Shown here: positions 24,753 through 36,177 of the stretch, piece after piece
Numbering within the stretch: position 1 is the stretch's first letter
Layout of the letters: every line of letters starts with the position of its first letter
Assembly: GCA_049840735.1 (NCBI GenBank)
Contig: JASGJN010000022.1
Coordinates: 480,001-544,000 of the forward strand
DNA length: 64,000 bases
From: Anaeromyxobacter sp.
GTDB lineage: Bacteria > Myxococcota > Myxococcia > Myxococcales > Anaeromyxobacteraceae
Direction of reading: 5' to 3'
The notes under the pieces: generated by a model
The model's input: only the letters and a program-made list of their open reading frames with translations
Databases searched by the model: none
Told to the model about the DNA's origin: nothing
Translations under genes and position numbers: made by a program

Positions 24753-25772
24753 TTACCTCCGCGCCGCCAGCAGCGCGTTCACCTTCTCCATCACCGCGAA
24801 GGCGTCCGCCACGTAGACGACGTCCGCCTTGCCGCGCGCCCAGCCGCAGCTCGCGTCCAGGTTCACGGCGCGCCGCTCGCGGATGAAGCGCCAGCCCACC
24901 ACGTGCGGCTCCTCGCCGTGGCAGCAGGTGGCGAGCCCCTTGGGGTGGCGCGGCGTGGAGCCGGTCTGGCCGACCTGGTTCAGGTGGGTCATGAAGTCGA
25001 GCACCGCGGCCCCCTCGCCGGCCTGGTCGGTGAGGGACTTGGAGGTGCCCAGCGACGCGCCGGCGGCGTGCAGGAAGCCCAGGATGAGCTGCCCGGCGCG
25101 ATCCGGGTGCGGCAGGCCGTCGGCCTGCTTCTTGGTCCAGCCCGCGCCCGCGACGAAGAGGAGCTTCGGCGTCGGGGCGGATGGTCTGCTCGCCGGAGGC
25201 CGGGGCGTGGAAGCCCTGGACGGTGGTCCGGGAGGCCGGGAGGTCCACCGCGACCGGCTGGGCCGCGGCGCTGCCGCCGCTGGCGCGCGGCTGCCGGGAA
25301 CGCGCCGGGATCGACCAGCAGCAGCCATGGGCGCTCGGTGCGAGCACAGCTTCGCCTCGATGCGCTGCTGGTAGTACCAGCGCGTCGCCGCCAGCGCGCC
25401 ACCTTCGGCGGCCAGCGCGGTGACGTGCGTGTCCACCCGGCCGCCCAGGCGCTGGGCCAGGCCGGCGGCGATCCGGCTCATGCGCGACAGCGCCGGGGCG
25501 ACGATCACGCTCGCCTGCGCGGCCCTGGCCAGCGCCGCGGCCGCGGCGGCGTCGGTGGCGTAGCGCGCGTCGGCCAGCGCGGGCGACTCAACGGTGAGGA
25601 CGTGCCCGGCACCTGCCGCTCCCAGCGCGGCGACGGCCGGGCCGGTGGCGGCGCCGAAGACGGCGGCCGTGACAGGCTGGCCCAGGGCGCGGGCGGCGGT
25701 GAGGGCCTCGAGCGAGGCGCGGGGGAGCGAGCCATCGGGCTCGATGGGGGTGAGGAGGAGGACGTTGTCCAT
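24753..25772 (-). CDS. etfA: Electron transfer flavoprotein alpha subunit, divergent (three net-compensating frameshifts ~25165-25345)
   Basis: RIAAGLAQRLGG, LLFVAGAGW, GASLGTSK, NQVGQTG; middle segment is recovered from two other frames (ERPWLLLVDPG; VQGFHAPASGEQTIRPDA). Confidence 0.85.
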   Translation of the reverse strand: MDNVLLLTPIEPDGSLPRASLEALTAARALGQPVTAAVFGAATGPAVAALGAAGAGHVLTVESPALADARYATDAAAAAALARAAQASVIVAPALSRMSRIAAGLAQRLGGRVDTHVTALAAEGGALAATRWYYQQRIEAKLCSHRAPMAAAGRSRRVPGSRAPAAAAPRPSRSRWTSRPPGPPSRASTPRPPASRPSAPTPKLLFVAGAGWTKKQADGLPHPDRAGQLILGFLHAAGASLGTSKSLTDQAGEGAAVLDFMTHLNQVGQTGSTPRHPKGLATCCHGEEPHVVGWRFIRERRAVNLDASCGWARGKADVVYVADAFAVMEKVNALLAARR

Positions 25773-25787
25773 GGCGATCTCTCCGGG

Positions 25788-26591
25788 TCAGTCCTGCCCG
25801 ATCCACTCGACGAGCTCGCGGGCCATGTCGTCGGGGCTCATGTCTTTCACCACCCGCGTCTCGCGGGTCACCCTGGGCACCGTCACCGACTGGAAGGTGG
25901 CCCCCGGGCCGACCGGCGAGGCCGGCGCCTTCTGCAGCGCGGGCATCACCCCGCGCATGTTGGCCATGCCGATCTGCGGGTTGTTCTTGGGCTCGGGCAG
26001 GTTCCCGGTGGCCCAGCCGAGCACCGCCGGAGGGCCCTCGACCACCGAGACCTGGTGCCTGCCGCCCTCGACGCGCTCGAGGACGCGCAGCCCGCCCTCC
26101 ACCACCGTAAGCTCGTCCACGCCCTGGAACTGGTCGCCGATCTCCAGGAGCTCGCCGACCATCCCCAGCGTCACGCCCGCGCCGCGCGACCCCGACTCCC
26201 AGCCGCCGAAGAGCAGCAGCCGCGAGCGGTCCAGGCCCGGCAGCCCCCGGACGGCCGCCGCCAGCCGGCTGGCCACCTCGTGCGCGTCGGTGAAGCCGCT
26301 GGCCGGCCCGTCCAGCGCCACCAGCTCGAAGGGGACCTTCTGCCCCACCGCCATCATCACCTGCTGCAGCTTGGCCTTGGGCCCGAGCGCGAGCAGCGTG
26401 ACCTTGGTGCCGGGCACCTTGCCCGCCAGGGCCGCCGCCTCGTACAGCGCCTGGGCCGCCCAGGGGTCCAGGACGTGCGGCAGCATGGCCTCGTTCTTGA
26501 GGCCGGGGCCCTGCGGCGTGGCCACCGGCTCGAGGGTCTGCAGCGGATCGGGGACGATGCTCCCCAGGACGACGATTTGATAGCCGGACAT
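25788..26591 (-). CDS. etfB: Electron transfer flavoprotein beta subunit
   Basis: IVPDP, LDPWAAQALYEA, VTLLALGP, LLLFGGWES, LERVEGG; lies between ETF-QO and etfA. Confidence 0.88.
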   Translation of the reverse strand: MSGYQIVVLGSIVPDPLQTLEPVATPQGPGLKNEAMLPHVLDPWAAQALYEAAALAGKVPGTKVTLLALGPKAKLQQVMMAVGQKVPFELVALDGPASGFTDAHEVASRLAAAVRGLPGLDRSRLLLFGGWESGSRGAGVTLGMVGELLEIGDQFQGVDELTVVEGGLRVLERVEGGRHQVSVVEGPPAVLGWATGNLPEPKNNPQIGMANMRGVMPALQKAPASPVGPGATFQSVTVPRVTRETRVVKDMSPDDMARELVEWIGQD

Positions 26592-26603
26592 CCGGTTTCC
26601 CTT

Positions 26604-28482
26604 TCAGTTCTCCGCCGAGTGCAGGCCGCCCGTGCCGGCGCGGAAGGACAGGTTCACGCGGTCGGTGCCGGGCACGCGCGCCGTACAGCTCCACAGGCAG
26701 GCCCCGCAGTGCACGCACTTCTCGCGCTCGAACGAGGGCACCCCGCCCTCGCCCGGCCGGATGGCCTCGGCCCGAGCAGATCTCCACGCAGACCCGCTTG
26801 CCGCATGCCCGGCACAGCTCCGGATCCACGAACACCACGTGGTCGGCGTAGCCGGGCGCGGCCTGGACCTTGCCGCCCAGGAGCAGCGCGTCCTGCTGCG
26901 ACACCAGCAGCTTGCCGTCCAGCGGGACGGCCGGCCACCCGGCCCGGTCCATGAGCGCGTCGTGCAGCGGCACGCCCCGCGCCTCGCAGTCCGCCCGCAG
27001 CCGGGCAATCTCCTCGGCCGGGATCCGCCCCGCGTAGAACCCCTCCAGCGTGCCGACCTTCTCGGCCGGGTGCGGCGGCTCGTGGCCCAGCGACACCTTC
27101 CCGCCGGTCAGGCCGGAGAGCGCCATCCCCACGAGCCCGGTCACCACGCCGCGCTGGAAGCCGTCGCGCGCCTTCTCCGCCACGCGCCCCTCCGCCTCGA
27201 CCCAGCTGTCGCGCCGGCGGGTCACGTAGGCCGCCTCGAGCTGCTCGCGGGAGAAGGGCTGCCCGGCCTCGAGCAGCGCGATGACCGCCTCGCCCAGCTG
27301 GGCGCCGGTGGCGAAGGCCTCGTCCACGCCGGAGGAGGTGAGCACGTTGGTCGAGCCGGAGCCCTCGCCGATGCGGGCGAAGCCGTCGCCGGCCAGGAGC
27401 GGCTCGCCGCGCCGGCCGGACTCGAGGATCGACTTGGCGCCCCAGGAGCGCAGCGTGGAGTCCTTGAGCCAGCGCCAGAGGTAGGGGTGCTGCACGTAGT
27501 GCTGCAGGTAGCGGTAGCTGGTCCGCACCGGGGACTCGAACCAGCTCGGCACGAAGATGCCCACCGAGGCCACCCGGTCGGGGTGGACGTAGAGGAAGCC
27601 GAAGATCTCCGGCTCGGGGAAGCCGAAGGTGTGGAGCACGGTGCCGGGCACGAGCGGCGTGTCCTGGGGCAGGTCCACCACGAACTTCATGCCCACCGCC
27701 CAGTCGCGCCGGCCGTGGCTGCCGGGCATCCCCAGCGCCTCGTCCAGCTGCCGCCCCACCGCGCCCACCGGGCCGTCCGCCACCACGGTCAGCCCGGCGC
27801 GCACGTCCATGCCGGGCAGGTAGGCGGCGCCGTCAGGCCGCCCGGCCCGGTCCACGCCCTGGTCCAGCAGCCGCACGCCCTTCACGGCCTGCCCCTCCAC
27901 CAGCGCCCCGGCCACCGGCGTGCCCGGCCAGACCTGCACCGTGCCCGAGGCCATCACCTGGCCGGCCATCCACTGCATGAGCTGGCCCATGGAGAAGACG
28001 AAGCCGTCGCGCTTGTGCAGGAAGCCCGGCGTCCAGGGCAGCCGCAGCGCCTCGGCCTCCACCGGCAGCGCCTTGCGCAGCGCGCGGATGGTCCGGTCGG
28101 CGCCGCGCAGCGCGGCGGAGCGCCGGCTGGCGCCGATGGGATCGAGCAGGTAGAGCACCTCCTCGCGCGCCACCCTGGCCGCCATGGGGATCTGCGCCGG
28201 ATCCAGGTCCGGGAAGGCCTCCCGCAGCGAGCGGCCGCGGGTCACCACGCCGGAGACGCCGAAGCCGGTGTCGTCGGCCCGCTCGTAGCAGAGCACCTGG
28301 AGCGGCAGGCCCGGCGAGGCGCGGCTCTCCAGCGCCGGCTTCGACGGGTCGGCGAGCCGCCGCGACAGCGTGGTGAGGAAGCCGGCCGCGGCCGGTCCGA
28401 AGCCGACGCAGGCGATGTCCACCGCCATGCTGGCGCGCGCCGGCGCCTCGCCCTGCGTCCCCGTTCCCTCGACCGGATCCAT
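26604..28482 (-). CDS. ETF-quinone oxidoreductase / FixC-like flavoprotein with fused ferredoxin domain (frameshift at ~26770)
   Basis: VDIACVGFGPAAAG FAD motif, TVVADG, ARIGEGSG; C-terminal CRACGKRVCVEIC and CVHCGACLWSC. Confidence 0.9.
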
Positions 28483-28551
28483 GCCTGCCTCCCACCGCGA
28501 GCAGCGGCCCCGGCGGCTCGTGCCGGAGCCGCCGGATGGCCTGCCGTGCTG

Positions 28552-30786
28552 CTACGCCGGGTAGTCGAGCGCCTCGGGGATCATCACGTGCGCCAGCGCG
28601 TCGGCGGCGCGGTCCTTGGCCAGCATGGCCCCGGTCAGGCAGCCGTCCACCTTGGCGCGCAGGTGGCGGAAGTCGGTCATGCCCTTGCAGGAGGCGCAGG
28701 GCCCCTCCTTGTCCGGGTGATGGCCCTCGCCGTCCACCTCGTCCATGGCGCAGCCCGCCAGGCCGGGGAAGATGCCCTCCAGCGCCTCGGCGTAGGTCGC
28801 GTCCCAGCAGGCCTTGCGCCCGTCGGCGTCCCAGCTCGGGTGGCGGTTGTAGCCGTGGACCAGCTCGGCGCAGATGCGCCCCACCTCGCCGGCGGCGCGC
28901 GCCGTCTGCACGTGGCAGAGGTCGGCGAAGAACTGCGCCGTGCCCGGCAGCGCCTCGCCCAGCACCGCGCCGCCCTGGTCCGCCAGCGCCACCGCGTCCA
29001 TGACCTGCATGCGCGCCGCCACCAGCCAGCCCAGCGCGTCGGCCAGCTTGAAGGTCACGCCCTGCCGCGGCGACTGGTAGAGCCGCTGCCCGTCGGCGTC
29101 GGTGGCGCCCTCCAGGTGGCGGAAGGTCCAGAGCCACAGCTCGATGGCCGAGGCCAGCGCGCAGGCGCCGGTGCCGTGGTGCGTGGCGGCCACGTGCCGC
29201 AGCTCGCGCGCCCAGCCCTTGAGCTGCGCCAGCCAGAGCGGGTGGGCCATGGTCACCGAGAGCTGGCGGCGCTGCACCGCCTCCGGCCCCTCGTAGGTGG
29301 CCTCGAGCTGCGCGTCCATCCACTTCTGGCCCAGGAAGCCGGGGCAGTCCTCGGTGATGCCGTAGCCGCCCATGAGCGACACCGCCTCGCGCATCACGGT
29401 GGCGCCCACGCCGGTGTTCCAGAGCTTGGCGGCCGGGCAGAGCACGTTGGCCTGGGCGTCGAGCAGCGCGAAGCGGATCATCTCGTCCGCCTCCAGGGCC
29501 GCCAGCCGCGCCTCGTCCTGCTGGCCGCGCGGCCGGGCCCGCAGCTCGAGCAGCTCCAGCGCGGCCTGCTCCAGCCCCTTCATCCACTTCATGGTGGCCT
29601 TCATGCCGGAGATGCCCTGCTCCGCCAGCACCGCGTCCTTGCGCCGCTCCAGCGGGTCGAGCTCGTCGAAGAGCCGGGCGCCGCCGAAGCCCAGCGAGGC
29701 GGCGGCCTCGCCGGTGGCCCAGACCTCCACCAGGCGGTGGAGCGCGTCCTGGCGCTGCTGGATGCCCAGCTCGTAGCGGATGGAGCCGGGCGCGGCCTGC
29801 TCGGCGCCGCGGAAGCGGCCGCGCTGGTAGCGGATCACCGGCTCCACCGCGCTCAGGAGCTTCGCGGCGGTCATCACCGCCACGGTCACGCGCGTGCGCC
29901 GGAACACCGCCTCGATCACCGTCGAGTGATCGAAGTTCGGGATGATCACGCCGTCCTTCACGGTGTAGCCGCCCACGATGCGCGAGGCGGGGATGGTGAG
30001 GTTGAAGATGGGATCGTTGGTGGAGGAGAGCTGGTGGACCAGCTTCTTGGTGGGCGTGCCGCGGTCGAAGGTGCCCGGGTCGCCCTCCTCCAGGATCACC
30101 ATGCAGCTCCCCTTGATGCGGGGATCGGCCGAGTCCACCGCCGCGGTGACGAAGTTGGCGAAGCCCATGTTGGTGATGAAGCGGCCGCGCTTGTCCACGT
30201 GCAGCAGCGGCTCCTGCCCGTCCTTCCACTCCTTCACCGAGACCTTGCCGGAGAGCATGCCGGTGTCGACGCCGACGTAGGGGATGGGCTCGGTGAGCGC
30301 GAAGGCGGCGCGCCACGGCTTGCGGTCCTCGCCGGGCCTCGCCGGCGCGGCCAGGCTCATGTAGTGGCGGGTCTGCTCGGGCGTGCCGCGCTCGTGGATG
30401 GGCGAGAGCCCCAGGAAGCCGGCCAGCGCGCCGGTGGCCGCGCCGGCGTCCACCCAGGCCAGCTCGTAGGCGGCCAGCGCCAGGGCCAGGTTCTTGGGGC
30501 CGGCGATGAAGCCGCCCTCCTCCGGCTCCATGAAGGCGGCGGTGATGCCGGAGGCGTCGTAGGCCGCGAGCAGCTCCGCCTTGCGCTCGGTCCAGTCGTG
30601 GTCGTTCCGCCCGCCCTCGGCCACCAGCCGCGCCACCGGCCCGCGGGCCACGCCGCGCGCCGACTGCACCAGCATCTGGAGATCGAAGCGCTCGGCGAAG
30701 CGCCACATGACCTGGCGGACGTCGTCGCCGGGGAGCGTCCGGAGGGACTCGTGCTGCGCCTGCTGTGAGAGGGCTGCCGTGGGCAT
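28552..30786 (-). CDS. Long acyl-CoA dehydrogenase family protein
   Basis: AFALTEP, KRGRFITN, AVSLMGGYGITED, ATYEGPEAVQR; extra C-terminal helical domain. Confidence 0.93.
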   Translation of the reverse strand: MPTAALSQQAQHESLRTLPGDDVRQVMWRFAERFDLQMLVQSARGVARGPVARLVAEGGRNDHDWTERKAELLAAYDASGITAAFMEPEEGGFIAGPKNLALALAAYELAWVDAGAATGALAGFLGLSPIHERGTPEQTRHYMSLAAPARPGEDRKPWRAAFALTEPIPYVGVDTGMLSGKVSVKEWKDGQEPLLHVDKRGRFITNMGFANFVTAAVDSADPRIKGSCMVILEEGDPGTFDRGTPTKKLVHQLSSTNDPIFNLTIPASRIVGGYTVKDGVIIPNFDHSTVIEAVFRRTRVTVAVMTAAKLLSAVEPVIRYQRGRFRGAEQAAPGSIRYELGIQQRQDALHRLVEVWATGEAAASLGFGGARLFDELDPLERRKDAVLAEQGISGMKATMKWMKGLEQAALELLELRARPRGQQDEARLAALEADEMIRFALLDAQANVLCPAAKLWNTGVGATVMREAVSLMGGYGITEDCPGFLGQKWMDAQLEATYEGPEAVQRRQLSVTMAHPLWLAQLKGWARELRHVAATHHGTGACALASAIELWLWTFRHLEGATDADGQRLYQSPRQGVTFKLADALGWLVAARMQVMDAVALADQGGAVLGEALPGTAQFFADLCHVQTARAAGEVGRICAELVHGYNRHPSWDADGRKACWDATYAEALEGIFPGLAGCAMDEVDGEGHHPDKEGPCASCKGMTDFRHLRAKVDGCLTGAMLAKDRAADALAHVMIPEALDYPA

Positions 30787-30982
30787 CGGGCGTTCTCCTG
30801 CGTGGAGCGCCGCTCGCATCGCGCGCTCCGGTGGTGCGGCGAACTTCGGGTGTGGACCCTGTGACGAAGCCTCGGGAGTGCACGGAGGCTAGCACCGGGT
30901 GACGGAGCGTGGAACGGCCGAGCAGCCGACGCGCCGCGTTGGCGCGGTCAGCAGGGGCGTAAACCACGCGAACTGATCGCCG

Positions 30983-31738
30983 TCATGGCGCGGCGGCGAA
31001 CTCCGCCACCACCGGCGCGTGATCGCTGGTGCCGAAGTCGGCGAGCACCGCGCAGCGGGTGACCCGCCGGGCGAGCGGCTCGCTGGCCAGCACGTAGTCG
31101 ATGCGCCAGCCGATGTTGCGCTGGCGCAGGTTCCGCCACGGCGCCCACCAGGTGAAGAGCCCTTCGTTCTGCGGATTGACGGCGCGCCCCACGTCCACCA
31201 GCCCGCAGGCCAGCAGCTGCTCCAGGAGCGCGCGCTCCTCCGGGAGCTGGCCGATGGCGCCGGCCTTGCGCTCCTTGGGGTGCACATCCTGCTCGGTGCG
31301 CGCCACGTTGAGGTCGCCGCAGAGGATCAGCTGGCGGCCGGCCGCCCTGGCCTCGGCGGCCCAGGCCACCAGCGCCTCGAGGAAGCGCAGCTTCGCGGCC
31401 AGGTCCTTGCCGCCGTTGGGCACGTAGATGGACGCGACCGTCACGCCGCCCGCCTCGGCGGTGGCGATGCGGGTCTCGTGATCGAAGGGCGGGTGGGCGA
31501 AGCGCGGGCCCTCCAGGGCCAGCTCGCGCCGGACGTGGAGCCCGACGCCCGAGTAGGCGGTCTCGCCGTGCCAGAGGCAGTGATACCCGGGCAGCTCGCA
31601 GAGGGCGGCGGGGACCTTGGACGGGGGCGCCTTGATCTCCTGGAGGCAGAGGACGTCGGGCGCCTCGCGCTCCAGGAAGGCCTGGACCTGCGCCTCGCGC
31701 GCCCGGATCCCGTTCACGTTCCAGGTGCTGATCTTCAC
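30983..31738 (-). CDS. xth: Exodeoxyribonuclease III
   Basis: KISTWNVNGIRAR, LCLQEIK, IYVPNG, CGDLNVA, GWRIDY, SDHAPV. Confidence 0.96.
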   Translation of the reverse strand: MKISTWNVNGIRAREAQVQAFLEREAPDVLCLQEIKAPPSKVPAALCELPGYHCLWHGETAYSGVGLHVRRELALEGPRFAHPPFDHETRIATAEAGGVTVASIYVPNGGKDLAAKLRFLEALVAWAAEARAAGRQLILCGDLNVARTEQDVHPKERKAGAIGQLPEERALLEQLLACGLVDVGRAVNPQNEGLFTWWAPWRNLRQRNIGWRIDYVLASEPLARRVTRCAVLADFGTSDHAPVVAEFAAAP

Positions 31739-31801
31739 GCCGCGACCTCCGGCCGGAGGTCTTAGCGCAGCCGTAATGGTTTTTCCGCCCTGAAAAGGCC
31801 T

Positions 31802-32020
31802 GCGCGCCGGTCCCTGCGGGGACAGGGGCGGCGCGCGGCGGGGTCGTTCAGGGAAGGAGCCCGGAGGCGGCCGTCGGGGAACGGCCGCCTCCAGGTGCTG
31901 CGTGGCTGCTCGGGGAAGCAGCTTGCTGCGTCCGCTGCGGGGACAGCGGGGTCCTGCGGTGCTGCATCGGGGAGTGCGTCTGCTGCGGCTGCGGTGCTGC
32001 GTGCTGCGGAGGAAAGTCCT
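31802..32020. ncRNA. Candidate modular structured RNA: five hairpins with identical CGGGGA (minus strand UCCCCG) hexaloops
   Basis: Loops at 31817, 31875, 31911, 31938 and 31968, each closed by a different complementary stem; GCTGC/GCAGC-rich linkers. Confidence 0.6.
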
Positions 32021-32032
32021 GGCTGTACGGGC

Positions 32033-32386
32033 TCAGGCGGCGCGGTCGTAATCGGGCGACCGGACCGGCTTGCGCGCGGTGCGGATGGTGTGCTCCTGGC
32101 CGTCCGGGGTCCGGAAGGTGTAGCCGACCACCTGCTCACCGCGGGTGTTGCCCATCAGCTCGAAGTAGAGCTCGAACTCGCGGGCCAGCGAGTCGGGCAC
32201 GCCCATCGAGTCCAGCGTCTTGGCCTCGTTGGACGGGCTGAGCTGGGTGACCGGCGCCGGCTGTGAGGTCTCCGCCGGCGACAGCTCCTGGTCCCGGCTG
32301 GGCAGCAGGGCCCGGGCCCAGGCACCGATCGCCTGGGTGAGGCGGCGGGCCGGAAGGACTTCGTTGTTCAGCTCGTGCGGCTTCAT
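32033..32386 (-). CDS. Small hypothetical protein divergent from LysR regulator
   Basis: 117-aa ORF MKPHELNNEV...PDYDRAA with normal codon bias; no family recognised. Confidence 0.65.
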   Translation of the reverse strand: MKPHELNNEVLPARRLTQAIGAWARALLPSRDQELSPAETSQPAPVTQLSPSNEAKTLDSMGVPDSLAREFELYFELMGNTRGEQVVGYTFRTPDGQEHTIRTARKPVRSPDYDRAA

Positions 32387-32495
32387 GACCACTCGGTTTC
32401 CGTTCCGTCGGCGGCCCGCTGGATGCGGGAGCCATCCGACGGGGAGAACATGCGACGCGGCGGGTCATCGGTCCAATCGATTGATCGGACGTATG

Positions 32496-32514
32496 CGATA
32501 ACCTAGTGTTATCG
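32496..32514. promoter_or_regulatory. LysR-type binding site (T-N11-A dyad)
   Basis: cgataac-ctagt-gttatcg perfect dyad immediately before the LysR ATG in an AT-richer spacer. Confidence 0.75.
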
Positions 32515-32515
32515 G

Positions 32516-33418
32516 ATGGAGCTCCGCCTCGTCCGCTCGTTTCGAGTTCTTGCAGAGCAGGGAAATTACGGCCGCGCCGCGCGGGCCTTGCACCTGTCGC
32601 AGCCGGCCCTCACCAAGCAGATCCGGCAGCTGGAGGAGCAGCTTGGCGCACCCCTCTTCGCGCGAGGGCGTCACGGAGCGCAGCTCACACCCCTGGGAAG
32701 GCTGTTCGCGGTCGAGGCCGAGGAGCTGCTGCGGCACGCTGACGCGGTGCAGGAGCGCATCCGTCGCGCGGCGCGCGGGGAGCTGGGCGAGCTTCGGCTC
32801 GGCTTCGGCGTCGCCACCCGCCTGCTGGTGCCGCGGCTCGTGTCGCGGTTCCGGCGCGCCCACGCCAGCGTGCACGTCACGCTGCAGGACATGTCCTCGC
32901 CCAACCAGCTCGAGGCGCTGCGGCGCGGCACGCTGGACGTGGGGTTCGTACGGCTCCCGCTGGAGGGCGAGCAGCTCGCGGTGTTGCCGGTGGTGGAGGA
33001 CCGGCTGGTGCTGGTAGTCCCGGCCTGGCGCCGCGCCGAGCTGGAGCGGCGGCCGCGCAACGCGCTCGCCGAGGAGGCCTTCGTGGAGCTGGGCCAGACC
33101 CGCTCCCCCAGCTTCCACGCCCACGTGCTCCGGGTCTGCGCCGCCTACGGCTTCCGGCCGCGCGTGGCCCAGACCGCCACCGAGTTCTTCACCGTGCTGG
33201 CGCTGGTGGCGGCCGGGATGGGCATCGCGGTGGTGCCCCGCGCCATCACCACCACCCGCGTGGAGGGGGTGGCCTACCTGCCGCTGGACACCCCCGAGGC
33301 GCGATGGCGCGTCGGCGCAGCCTGGTCCCCCGCAGCGGTCAGCCCGGCGCGGGACGCGTTCCTCTCGCTGCTGCGGGAGGCCCTGGCCGGGGCGGGAGCT
33401 GGGGCCAAGGGAGCCTAG
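32516..33418 (+). CDS. LysR-family transcriptional regulator
   Basis: MELRLVRSF...AARALHLSQPALTKQIRQLEEQLGAPLFAR; LALVAAGMGIAVVP. Confidence 0.96.
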   Translation: MELRLVRSFRVLAEQGNYGRAARALHLSQPALTKQIRQLEEQLGAPLFARGRHGAQLTPLGRLFAVEAEELLRHADAVQERIRRAARGELGELRLGFGVATRLLVPRLVSRFRRAHASVHVTLQDMSSPNQLEALRRGTLDVGFVRLPLEGEQLAVLPVVEDRLVLVVPAWRRAELERRPRNALAEEAFVELGQTRSPSFHAHVLRVCAAYGFRPRVAQTATEFFTVLALVAAGMGIAVVPRAITTTRVEGVAYLPLDTPEARWRVGAAWSPAAVSPARDAFLSLLREALAGAGAGAKGA

Positions 33419-33514
33419 TCCCGGGCACGTTATATTTGCCAGCAAGATCCGTCGAGTAGCTCACGTCGCGCCTGCCTTCCGGCGCGCCCGCTCCCGCCCT
33501 GCTAGAGCCCACAC

Positions 33515-35368
33515 ATGGACCTGACCCGCGCCCTCGAGGTGGCCGTCTCCGCCGCGCACGCCGCCGGCGAGCTCCTGCGCCGCGAGTTCTTTCGCGCGGG
33601 CGGTCCGCGCGGCGAGCCGGGCCACTGCCCGGCCGATGGCGAGGCCGAGGTGCTCATCCGGGAGCGGCTCATGGCGGCCTTCCCCGACCACGGCTTCGTG
33701 GCCGAGGAGGCGCCGGAGCACGACCGCCCCCCGCGCGTTCTCGCCGGCCCCACCTGGTTCGTGGACCCGAACGACGGCACCTCGGACTTCCAGCGCGGCC
33801 TGCGCGGCGCCACCGTCTCCATCGGCCTGGTCCAGGACGGCGTGCCGGTGCTGGGCGTGGTGCTGGCCCATACGGCCCCCTTTGGCGGGCAGCGGCTCTT
33901 CACCTGGGCGGAGGGGCTGGGCCCGGCTCGCGTGGACGGCCGCCCGCTGCCGTCGCTCGACCCGGCGCCGCTTCGTTCGCTGGATTTGGTCGTGGTAAGC
34001 GGCGGCGCGGCCGATCGCGTCCGCGGCATGGCGGGTTCGGTTGGCCCGGCCCGCTTCCGCCCGCAGTCGAGCGCCGCCTACCGGCTGGCCCTCGCCGCTG
34101 CCGGCGAGGCCCGCGCCGCGGTGACGCTGGGGCGGCCGCGCGCGCTGGACGTCGTCGCCGGCCACGCGCTCCTGCGCGGCGTTGGCGGCGTGATGCTGGA
34201 CGAGGGCGGCCGCGAGCCGCGCTACCCTACCGCCGGCGGCTCCCGGCTGGTCCACTGCTTCGGCGGCCCGCCGGCGGTGGCGGCGGCGCTGGCTGCGCGC
34301 GACTGGCGACCGGCCACCGGCCAGCGCGAGCCGGTGAAGCTCACCGCCCCGGCGCTGGGGCGGCTCCTCGAGGACGCCGGGCAGCTGCGACGCGCGCAGG
34401 GCGCGCTGCTGGGGCAGCTCTGCGGCGACGCGCTGGGCGCCCAGGTGGAGTTCCTCGCGCCGGAGGAGATTGCCCGCCGCCACCCCGGCGGCGTGCGCGA
34501 GCTGGCCGACGGCGGCGAGTGGAACACGCTGGCCGGCCAGCCCACCGACGACTCCGAGCTGGCGCTGGCGCTGGCCCGGGCGCTGGTGGAGGCGGGCGGC
34601 TTCGACGAGGGGCGGGTGGCCGAGGCCTACGCGGCCTGGATGGCCTCGGATCCCTTCGACGTGGGCGGCACCATCCGCGCCGCGCTCACGCCCGCCGCCC
34701 AGGCCCTCGCCGCCGGTCAGCGCGGCGCCGCGGTGGCCGCTGTCGCCCGCGCCGCGGCGCGGCCGGAGAGCAAGGCCAACGGCGCGCTGATGCGCGTCTC
34801 GCCGCTGGGCGTGGCCGGGCACGCCGCCCGGCCGGCCGCGCTCTGGGGTTGGGCCCGCGCCGACGCCGCGCTCACCCACCCGGCCGCCGTCTGCCAGGAC
34901 GCGAGCGGGGTGATGGCGCTGGCCATCGCGCAGGCGGTCCACACCGGCGCCTGCGGCGCCGCGCTGGCCGATCGCGCCGAGGCGCAGGCCGCGCAGCTGG
35001 GCGCGGGCGAGGAGGTGCGCGCGGCGCTGGCGGCGGCGCGCCACGGTCCGCCGGCCAGCTTCGTCGAGCACGCCGGCCTGGTCTCAATCGCGCTGCAGAA
35101 CGCCTTCCACCTGCTCCGGCGCGAGGTGCCGCTGGAGGAGGCGCTGGTGGAGACGGTGGGGCGCGGCGGCGATCCCGACACCAACGCCGCCATCGCCGGC
35201 GCGCTGCTGGGCGCGGCGCAGGGCGTGGAGGCGGTGCCGGCGCGCTGGCGCGAGGCGGTGCTCAGCTGCTGGCCGGTCTCCGGGCTCCCCGGCGTGAAGC
35301 GCGCCCGCCCGCCGGCCTGCTGGCCGGTGGACGCGCTGGTGCTGGCGGAGCGGCTGGCGGGGCTGTAG
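33515..35368 (+). CDS. Inositol-monophosphatase-family / ADP-ribosylglycohydrolase fusion protein
   Basis: N-half VAEE, WFVDPNDGT, LDVVAG; C-half GQLCGDALG, PTDDSEL, ANGALMR, GGDPDTNAAIAGALLGA; single open frame. Confidence 0.92.
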   Translation: MDLTRALEVAVSAAHAAGELLRREFFRAGGPRGEPGHCPADGEAEVLIRERLMAAFPDHGFVAEEAPEHDRPPRVLAGPTWFVDPNDGTSDFQRGLRGATVSIGLVQDGVPVLGVVLAHTAPFGGQRLFTWAEGLGPARVDGRPLPSLDPAPLRSLDLVVVSGGAADRVRGMAGSVGPARFRPQSSAAYRLALAAAGEARAAVTLGRPRALDVVAGHALLRGVGGVMLDEGGREPRYPTAGGSRLVHCFGGPPAVAAALAARDWRPATGQREPVKLTAPALGRLLEDAGQLRRAQGALLGQLCGDALGAQVEFLAPEEIARRHPGGVRELADGGEWNTLAGQPTDDSELALALARALVEAGGFDEGRVAEAYAAWMASDPFDVGGTIRAALTPAAQALAAGQRGAAVAAVARAAARPESKANGALMRVSPLGVAGHAARPAALWGWARADAALTHPAAVCQDASGVMALAIAQAVHTGACGAALADRAEAQAAQLGAGEEVRAALAAARHGPPASFVEHAGLVSIALQNAFHLLRREVPLEEALVETVGRGGDPDTNAAIAGALLGAAQGVEAVPARWREAVLSCWPVSGLPGVKRARPPACWPVDALVLAERLAGL

Positions 35369-35403
35369 GGGTGGGGGCCCCGGCATGTGGCCGGGGGAGG
35401 GGC

Positions 35404-35451
35404 GCCCTTCGACTCCGCGGCGCTCCGCGCCGCCACGCTCAGGTCGAACGG
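35404..35451 (+). repeat. REP-like palindromic element (TTCGAC...GCTCA family)
   Basis: gcccttcgactccg-cggcgc tcc gcgccg-ccacgctcaggtcgaacgg between convergent genes. Confidence 0.82.
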
Positions 35452-35484
35452 CCGTTCTCGGCCTGGCAGGGCGCAGCCCCCCGT

Positions 35485-36177
35485 TCAGACCGTCAACATC
35501 CCCCGCACCCCGTCCGCCTCCATGTCGGCGCCGTCCCCGCGCGCCAGGATCTCCCCCCGCTCCATCACCGCGTAGCGGTGGGCCAGCGAGCGGGCAAAGT
35601 CGTAGTACTGCTCCACCAGCAGCACCGCCAGCTGCCCCTCCGCCGCCACGGCGCGCAGCACCCGCTCGATCTCGCGGATGATCGACGGCTGGATGCCCTC
35701 GGTCGGCTCGTCCAGGATCAGCAGCGAAGGGCCGGCCACCAGCGCGCGGGCGATGGCGAGCTGCTGCTGCTGGCCGCCGGACAGGTCGCCGCCGCGCCGG
35801 TGCAGCATGCTGCGCAGGGCCGGGAACGGCGCCAGGGCGCGCTCGATCGACCCCCGCCCGCGCGGCGCCACCGAGGCCGCCACCTCCAGGTTCTCCTGCA
35901 CCGAGAGGCGCGGGAAGATCTCGCGGCCCTGGGGCACGTAGCCGATCCCGGCCGCGGCGCGGCGGTGCGGCGGAGCGCGGGTCAGGTCCTCGCCCTGGAA
36001 GGTGATCCGGCCCGCCGCCGCCGGCAGCAATCCCATGATCACCTTGAGGAGCGTGGTCTTCCCCACGCCGTTGCGCCCCAGCAGCGTCGTCACCTTCCCG
36101 GGCGGCACCTCCAGCGACACCTGCCGCAGGATCTGGCTGCCTCCGTACCGCTGCTCGAGGTTCTCGACGGTCAGCAT
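35485..36177 (-). CDS. urtE: Urea ABC transporter ATP-binding subunit
   Basis: LLGRNGVGKTT, YVPQGREIFPRLSV, DLSGGQQQQLAIARAL, LDEPTEGIQPSII. Confidence 0.93.
   Translation of the reverse strand: MLTVENLEQRYGGSQILRQVSLEVPPGKVTTLLGRNGVGKTTLLKVIMGLLPAAAGRITFQGEDLTRAPPHRRAAAGIGYVPQGREIFPRLSVQENLEVAASVAPRGRGSIERALAPFPALRSMLHRRGGDLSGGQQQQLAIARALVAGPSLLILDEPTEGIQPSIIREIERVLRAVAAEGQLAVLLVEQYYDFARSLAHRYAVMERGEILARGDGADMEADGVRGMLTV

Follow-up and report, generated by a model that had tools for sequence, protein, structure and literature searches.

A candidate 3′-UTR RNA with identical C-rich loops behind a LysR-linked small-protein gene in one Anaeromyxobacter genome

The hairpin array

What is a row of five hairpins, all carrying the same loop, doing behind a small gene? 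The locus lies in a window of 64,000 nt, the whole stretch of DNA analysed here, on contig C22 of Anaeromyxobacter sp., a soil bacterium whose genome (6.67 Mb, 74% GC) is 94% complete, and the array sits between an ORF of 117 aa and xth. Five loops, reading CGGGGA on the plus strand and UCCCCG on the minus strand, span 31817-31973; GGGGA starts at plus-strand positions 31818, 31876, 31912, 31939, and 31969, with a C before each. The sequence-only reading that drew attention to the locus described five identical hexaloops on different stems and nine GCTGC motifs within 31897-32007, and both descriptions were borne out by reading the sequence and counting positions. Four of the five loops are closed by 5-12 Watson-Crick pairs in stems that differ from each other, namely 5, 12, 6, and 6 pairs at 31812-31827, 31863-31892, 31905-31922, and 31932-31949, as claimed. 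The fifth claimed stem, at 31963-31978, is present and weak: it has 3 Watson-Crick pairs, to which the plus strand, but not the minus, adds two G-U pairs, and it folds at -3.2 (plus) and -1.6 (minus) kcal/mol.

The array stood up to the shuffling that had been proposed as a check. In 5000 dinucleotide shuffles of 31780-32035, sets of two or more hairpins with one loop never came up, where 4 are observed. Across the whole host genome we found 18 clusters of at least three identical hexaloops on stems of at least 5 bp; 17 of them, CRISPR or tandem repeats, consist of a single stem in several copies, and four different stems are seen in the array alone. TCCCCG sites closed by at least 5 bp number 34 out of 6577 in the genome. 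With the loops aligned in register, all 20 loop-flanking positions of hairpins H2-H5 are Watson-Crick paired and each of the 5 positions shows 2-3 pair types, so the loop is constant while the stems differ. All 17 other clusters have identical stems. The earlier argument that simple duplication hardly explains a constant loop on variable stems holds, and the array pattern is real. We rejected a dispersed-repeat loop (UCCCCG ranks 24 of 631) and a REP, CRISPR, or tandem repeat (the array has four different stems and is single copy in the genome). A BLAST search of the array against its own genome gave 43 matches at E ≤10, with the self match alone strong.

A hidden coding sequence, either a Cys-rich plus frame or a Ser-Pro-rich minus frame, could also create repeats. 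Consistent with this, 4 of the 5 loops and 6 of the 9 GCTGC motifs fall in one frame, and one plus frame reads CCVRCGDSGVLRCCIGECVCCGCG. However, such frame sharing is not rare (about 0.13 each by our own arithmetic), the Cys-rich frame lacks a start codon between its upstream stop and the repeats and lies antisense over part of the real ORF, and the perfect stems would be left unexplained, which makes cryptic coding barely credible.

Strand and layout of the array

Folding of both strands, also proposed as a check, gave z -5.34 for the minus strand (0 of 200 shuffles as stable) and z -2.30 for the plus strand (3 of 200). Among 85 co-directional intergenic regions, drawn from 357 on crude gene calls and folded with 12 shuffles each, 3 reached z -5.3. 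By our reasoning a C-rich strand tends toward lower z, with a weak observed correlation (-0.13). On the minus strand a U-G pair closes each loop to a CCCC tetraloop (unpaired 0.97-1.0 in H2-H5), whereas in the plus-strand ensemble 3 of the 5 loops form reliably and stay open. H2-H4 are more stable on the minus strand and H1 and H5 slightly better on the plus. On this mixed evidence the folding models favour the minus strand, the strand of the ORF, and therefore four predicted CCCC tetraloops behind the 117-aa ORF.

Read along the minus strand, GACUUUCCUCC at 32008-32018 lies a short way behind the ORF stop and is a candidate RNase E cut site, after which comes a CCUCC motif. A GCAGCA-repeat segment (31980-32007) lies ahead of the hairpins, and its motif appears again in the linkers. 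H1 (31963-31978) is weak, with the UCCCCG loop on 3 pairs. H2 (31932-31949) has 6 bp plus the U-G closing pair and a CCCC tetraloop unpaired at 0.99-1.0, and H3 (31905-31922) is predicted to fold likewise into 6 bp, U-G, and a CCCC tetraloop. The predicted H4 (31860-31895) has 16 pairs on this strand around its CCCC tetraloop (-34.1 kcal/mol on minus vs -29.1 on plus), and H5 (31802-31836) is a predicted compound stem with a CCCC loop. UUUU at 31796-31793 lies 5 nt beyond H5, and together they make a possible weak terminator; the terminator scan did not call H5 or find a clear terminator behind the array. The downstream neighbour, outside the element, is xth (exodeoxyribonuclease III; 30983-31738, minus strand; TIGR00633 above cut-off), which probably has its own promoter near 31759-31765.

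Another explanation is a structure at the DNA level, with a G-quadruplex or with cruciforms that would influence the xth promoter. A canonical quadruplex pattern at 31818-31853 (G4Hunter 1.92) lies ~50 nt from the putative xth promoter, but 1268 of 28871 windows across the genome reach this score, the array was found upstream of 0 of 29 xth orthologues, and the stems would go unexplained. We consider this explanation highly improbable.

The other strand offers a different RNA, one with CGGGGA loops that would act as a CsrA/RsmA sponge or as antisense to the 3′ end of the ORF. CsrB/RsmZ sponges carry a repeated loop motif on several hairpins, and the array resembles them in this and in having GGA on its plus strand, where 3 of 5 loops are predicted to be open; H1 and H5 gain G-U pairs there, and the plus z is -2.3. 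Against this, the loop lies outside the ANGGA consensus and out of its register, the plus strand folds less specifically, only those 3 loops form in its ensemble, and no plus-strand promoter was called in the scan. Additionally, csrA (PF02599) was found in none of the 37 genus genomes, several of them 99-100% complete, while E. coli, B. subtilis, and T. maritima controls were positive. The sponge is therefore rejected, and a functional plus-strand RNA of either kind is very unlikely. The sequence-only reading had posed an either/or: its minus-strand branch, a 3′ UTR with C-rich loops, survives on folding, layout, and the G-rich ribosome-binding sites described below, and its plus-strand CsrA-sponge branch does not.

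Occurrence of the array in relatives

The array and the ORF had been proposed to form a conserved protein-plus-sRNA system. We compared 23 other ORF loci, 22 of which have downstream sequence (L045 has none and L099 <100 nt). The array is present at 0 of these 22 loci, whose ORFs reach no more than 64% identity in the core; the closest homologue, P0002, is not among them. ORF homologues lacking the array is the outcome that the sequence-only reading had itself named as refuting the idea, and a conserved system is not upheld. Many homologues instead have a single GC-rich hairpin directly behind the stop that is unrelated to the array.

These single hairpins speak in part for a cis-acting role, in which the structure would not pair with other RNAs. 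It would instead protect the ORF mRNA or terminate it, shield xth, or be bound repeatedly by a protein, either KhpA or the product of the 117-aa ORF. Repeated identical loops on varied stems also fit protein binding, and the host genome has a KhpA gene. However, five identical loops are needless for stability or termination when homologues manage with unrelated single hairpins, and a model of the 117-aa protein gave no clear RNA-binding fold match (best Z 2.2). The absence of a GGGG partner in the ORF transcript, as read from the predicted fold, also counts against it. We judge a purely cis-acting structure unlikely, if still a serious alternative.

Wider searches returned the array from the host genome only. 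BLAST against 91 family genomes found no array, the best match (E 7.5e-7) covering 39 nt at a contig end, and nine of the top matches, read by eye, contain none. A covariance model (R1) built on the single sequence, which can miss diverged arrays, found 0 in the 91 family genomes under strict filters with 47 candidates scored per genome, and over 40 loci was strong on the array itself alone. All 37 genus genomes contain matches to a three-loop pattern; among the matches listed, most are chance, CRISPR, or simple repeats. Pattern scans gave at least 120 genome-contig and 62 viral matches; in a screen of 285 loci from these scans, only the host genome's copies had three or more stem-closed loops among the matches listed. 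We found no array in phages, 3 weak Streptomyces matches in plasmids, and 8 matches to the pattern in metagenomes, none with the array or the ORF. The GCAGCACGCAGCACCG motif is no commoner in the family than its control. With the array found in one genome only, there is no cross-species covariation. From its distribution, the array seems to have been added in one lineage to an older unit of LysR and small protein, of which it is not a fixed part.

A singleton array could also be a functionless lineage-specific relic, in which a degenerate CCCCGCAGCA-type repeat expanded and some of its units turned into hairpins by local inversion or template switching. The region is readable as decayed CC(CC)GCAGCA units, the 3′ arms of H2, H3, and H5 are GCAG-like, plain tandem repeats of a CCCCGCAGCA-type unit occur in 5 of the 8 metagenome matches (two identical in sequence), and GCAGCA expansions stand before another element in 2 relatives. 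Yet the plain metagenome repeats form no stem-closed loops. The stems of H3 and H4 differ from those of H2 and H5 at most positions and are still fully paired, H4 closing the common loop with 16 pairs of unrelated sequence, and the identical stems in 17 of 17 other same-loop clusters are not what the array shows. A relic is thus an unlikely explanation.

The 117-aa protein family

The 117-aa ORF at 32386-32033 (minus strand) and the divergent LysR gene at 32516-33418 are as claimed. In the structure model the core of the protein (residues 57-104; pLDDT >90) is a helix and a beta-hairpin. A profile search found 159 related proteins (79 representatives at 50% identity), one of them labelled Anaeromyxobacteraceae, and when 300 other genomes of the order were searched, 14 carried a member, 11 of these 14 within the family Anaeromyxobacteraceae. 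Searches of Pfam, NCBIfam, PDB sequences, the Atlas, and known folds (best Z 2.2) gave no match. Judged by these sequence comparisons, the ORF belongs to a real, unnamed protein family. The closest homologue, P0002, is 71% identical overall and has the same N-terminus; in metagenomes its pattern gave 501 matches and 0 confirmed. A similarity to P0177 was rejected (probability 2.7).

A shorter paralogue of the ORF (L043) lies at C22:306288-306650 under the same LysR box and promoter. It has neither an adjacent LysR gene nor the array, and one plain hairpin follows it.

In two soil studies, contigs from RNA libraries span the ORF or its relatives, and one of them shows just one difference in 140 nt; these are assembled contigs, whose cover proves neither transcription nor its level. 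Copies nearly identical to the ORF turned up in runs X1, X2, X4, and X7. Contigs from runs X4 and X7 give no cover over 31757-32011, which indicates neither absence nor strand. The X7 pieces stop at 32055-32067, and run X2 has some depth at 31808-31909. One RNA contig from a relative shows 0 differences across 68 nt at 32287-32354 and is diverged elsewhere; this segment holds a hairpin and encodes the peptide that the ORF shares with P0002.

LysR, its box, and the promoter

The LysR-type regulator (32516-33418, plus strand; Pfam HTH_1 and LysR_substrate) is the presumed regulator of the ORF. It is nearest to the AlsR/HcaR group and below all listed family cut-offs, with AlsR the best in NCBIfam at 203.7 bits vs a cut-off of 430. 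A putative LysR box, GATAAC-N5-GTTATC, lies at 32497-32513. Its inner part, ATAAC-N5-GTTAT, occurs at two sites only in the genome, before the ORF and before the paralogue at C22:306.6 kb. The box or a close variant stands upstream of 13 of 14 family ORFs, the 14th being cut by a contig end, and was seen by eye at 8 of 10 further ORF loci. The putative ORF promoter (32447-32476, minus strand) consists of TTGGAC, 18 nt, and CATGTT, with a start near 32440. A scan with an E. coli-type consensus did not call it, and hexamers and spacing like TTGGAC-N18-CATVTT recur, by eye, upstream of homologues.

A LysR orthologue is present in 14 of 300 genomes of the order, and 12 of these 14 also carry the ORF. 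The two genes are divergent in G021, G191, G102, G202, G230, and G117, and G218 comes close to this arrangement. The conserved box and this co-occurrence support the earlier proposal that LysR controls the ORF, and a LysR-small protein regulon with predicted binding at the box is therefore well supported by comparative sequence evidence. This regulon of unnamed small proteins is solid whatever the RNA does.

In seven relatives (L418, L420, L421, and L423-L426) the LysR orthologue faces a sugar-binding gene that we take to be malE-like, and LysR boxes precede the small ORFs at other sites. A link of LysR to sugar metabolism is possible. At L422 (G020:C1, before 418426), LysR, with the box and promoter complete, faces an ORF of 28 codons that is no relative of the family.

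Comparison with known RNAs

An Rfam scan of 28000-36000 (E ≤5), another of the proposed checks, brought no family to its gathering score; only Atu_C4 (24.7/80 bits) and asX1 (23.8/70) appeared. We also compared the array with described RNAs by design. The Hfq-independent sX13 represses mRNAs by means of CCCC loops that act on GGGG motifs close to start codons, and it is a 115-nt stand-alone gene with three loops, behind polA and conserved across Xanthomonadaceae (PMC3771888). Both RNAs have several stable stems with apical CCCC loops, predicted in the case of the array, and the G-rich motifs near starts that sX13 targets are also enriched in the host genome. Unlike sX13, the array has four to five loops, lies behind a small ORF with that ORF and xth as neighbours, and matches no Rfam family; searches gave no homologue of it. 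By analogy of design, sX13 is the closest working analogue of the array.

6C RNA of Actinobacteria, for which Rfam contains a model, is widely conserved and has longer C runs in two hairpins. Its C-rich loops pair with mRNAs without chaperones in a high-GC bacterium (PMC6486639). The array is from a single genome, and 6C is absent among the Rfam matches at E ≤5. Membership in the sX13 or 6C families was rejected, as neither model matched in the Rfam scan.

Cuckoo RNAs carry CCUCCUCCC in each loop of adjacent hairpins with variable stems (PMC4615179), and CcsR, described together with CcaF1, consists of 3′-UTR modules of a small gene cut by RNase E at ACUUC and GUUUCC (PMC8034643). They share with the array a constant C-rich loop, variable stems, several modules, and a place 3′ of a small-protein gene; their pattern of 2-4 adjacent hairpins with variable stems and a constant loop is found here as four strong hairpins and one weak. 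The U-rich candidate RNase E site behind the ORF also resembles the CcsR sites. In contrast, the array loop is UCCCCG and not CCUCCUCCC, a LysR box stands in place of the RpoH control described for cuckoo/CcsR, the phylum is different, and the array is not conserved with its gene. The ORF has no Pfam match, and DUF1127 (PF06568) was not found in the host genome. Membership in cuckoo/CcsR was rejected, since the loop differs and the small gene is not DUF1127.

Within the same broad bacterial group, Pxr is also a stem-loop RNA; it lies behind nla19 under a sigma-54 promoter (PMC5568312). Membership in Pxr was rejected: RF01812 does not match at the array locus, and its best genome match (25.9/80 bits) is at another locus. 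In literature searches, mostly of open-access papers, Pxr came up as the studied myxobacterial sRNA, and we found no description of the array RNA, the ORF gene family, or Anaeromyxobacter sRNAs.

A model for the array

By analogy with sX13, 6C, or cuckoo RNAs, we tentatively read the array as a 3′-UTR RNA whose C-rich loops act in trans, an explanation that we put at slightly below an even chance. In this model, the LysR protein would bind the box at 32497-32513 and control a minus-strand transcript starting near 32440, made up of the 117-aa coding region and then a structured 3′ UTR of ~240 nt. The UTR is predicted to fold into four stable hairpins, each with a CCCC loop closed by U-G, and one weak hairpin. 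It would probably be released or protected as a small RNA, perhaps through an RNase E cut at the U-rich site just behind the stop. The CCCC loops could then, with no need of Hfq, pair with GGGGA and other G-rich stretches in the ribosome-binding sites of other mRNAs and, if they work as in sX13 and 6C RNAs, lower the translation of these mRNAs.

Suitable sites are present in the genome. Among 2807 gene calls (ATG starts from a crude script), GGGGA occurs in the -18 to -4 window of 124, compared with 48 and 45 in control windows, a 2.6-fold enrichment, and CGGGGA occurs in that window of 49 genes vs 21 and 26 in controls. The main ribosome-binding motif is GGAGG (450 of 2807), to which UCCCC is a poor match, and the 49 CGGGGA genes have no common theme by eye. 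The host genome has genes for RNase E/G and KhpA; Hfq, ProQ, RRM, and CsrA were not found in it at 94% completeness.

Altogether, the array is probably a selected RNA structure of known design, new in its loop, lineage, and control, and occurring once. If it is an active RNA, chaperone-free regulation by C-rich loops would reach another phylum, and such modules could be seen to arise in one lineage; the single occurrence limits the weight of the finding. A more specific proposal is a dual-function, LysR-controlled myxobacterial transcript that encodes an undescribed small protein and carries a recent multi-loop RNA derived from GCAGCA repeats. This RNA would have converged on the sX13/cuckoo design and, independently of Hfq, would silence one class of ribosome-binding sites, those rich in G; the small protein from its own transcript may bind it. 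We regard this full proposal as doubtful, distinctly on the unlikely side; if true, it would be a modular sRNA caught at birth.

Other elements

We also noticed an intergenic stand-alone element of ~150 nt at L345-L373 except L372 (e.g. G020:C1:1672418-1672738, minus strand). It comprises GGAGG, a GAGAU...GUCUC stem, a CCGG hairpin, a GCGCUC hairpin, and a terminator. It matched in 29 of 91 family genomes, 28 of them in the conserved part, and was not found in the host genome. Rfam gave no match to it, and across 13 sequences compensatory changes occur at 6 of the 27 predicted pairs. The copies in G020 and G009 have a 5′ extension of GCAGCA repeats resembling the array linkers. By sequence comparison, this element may represent an sRNA family that is so far undescribed, and conservation backs it more strongly than it does the array.

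A CRISPR array at C13:471880-474260, whose repeat we take to be type I-E-like, has CGGGGA in the repeat stem, and a second, short CRISPR-like array lies at C12:53259-53397. Elsewhere in the window, ETF-like and adjacent reading frames at 24753-28482 run, by eye, into out-of-frame text, which suggests assembly indel errors. Downstream of LysR, 33515-35368 encodes a fusion of inositol monophosphatase and ADP-ribosylglycohydrolase domains.
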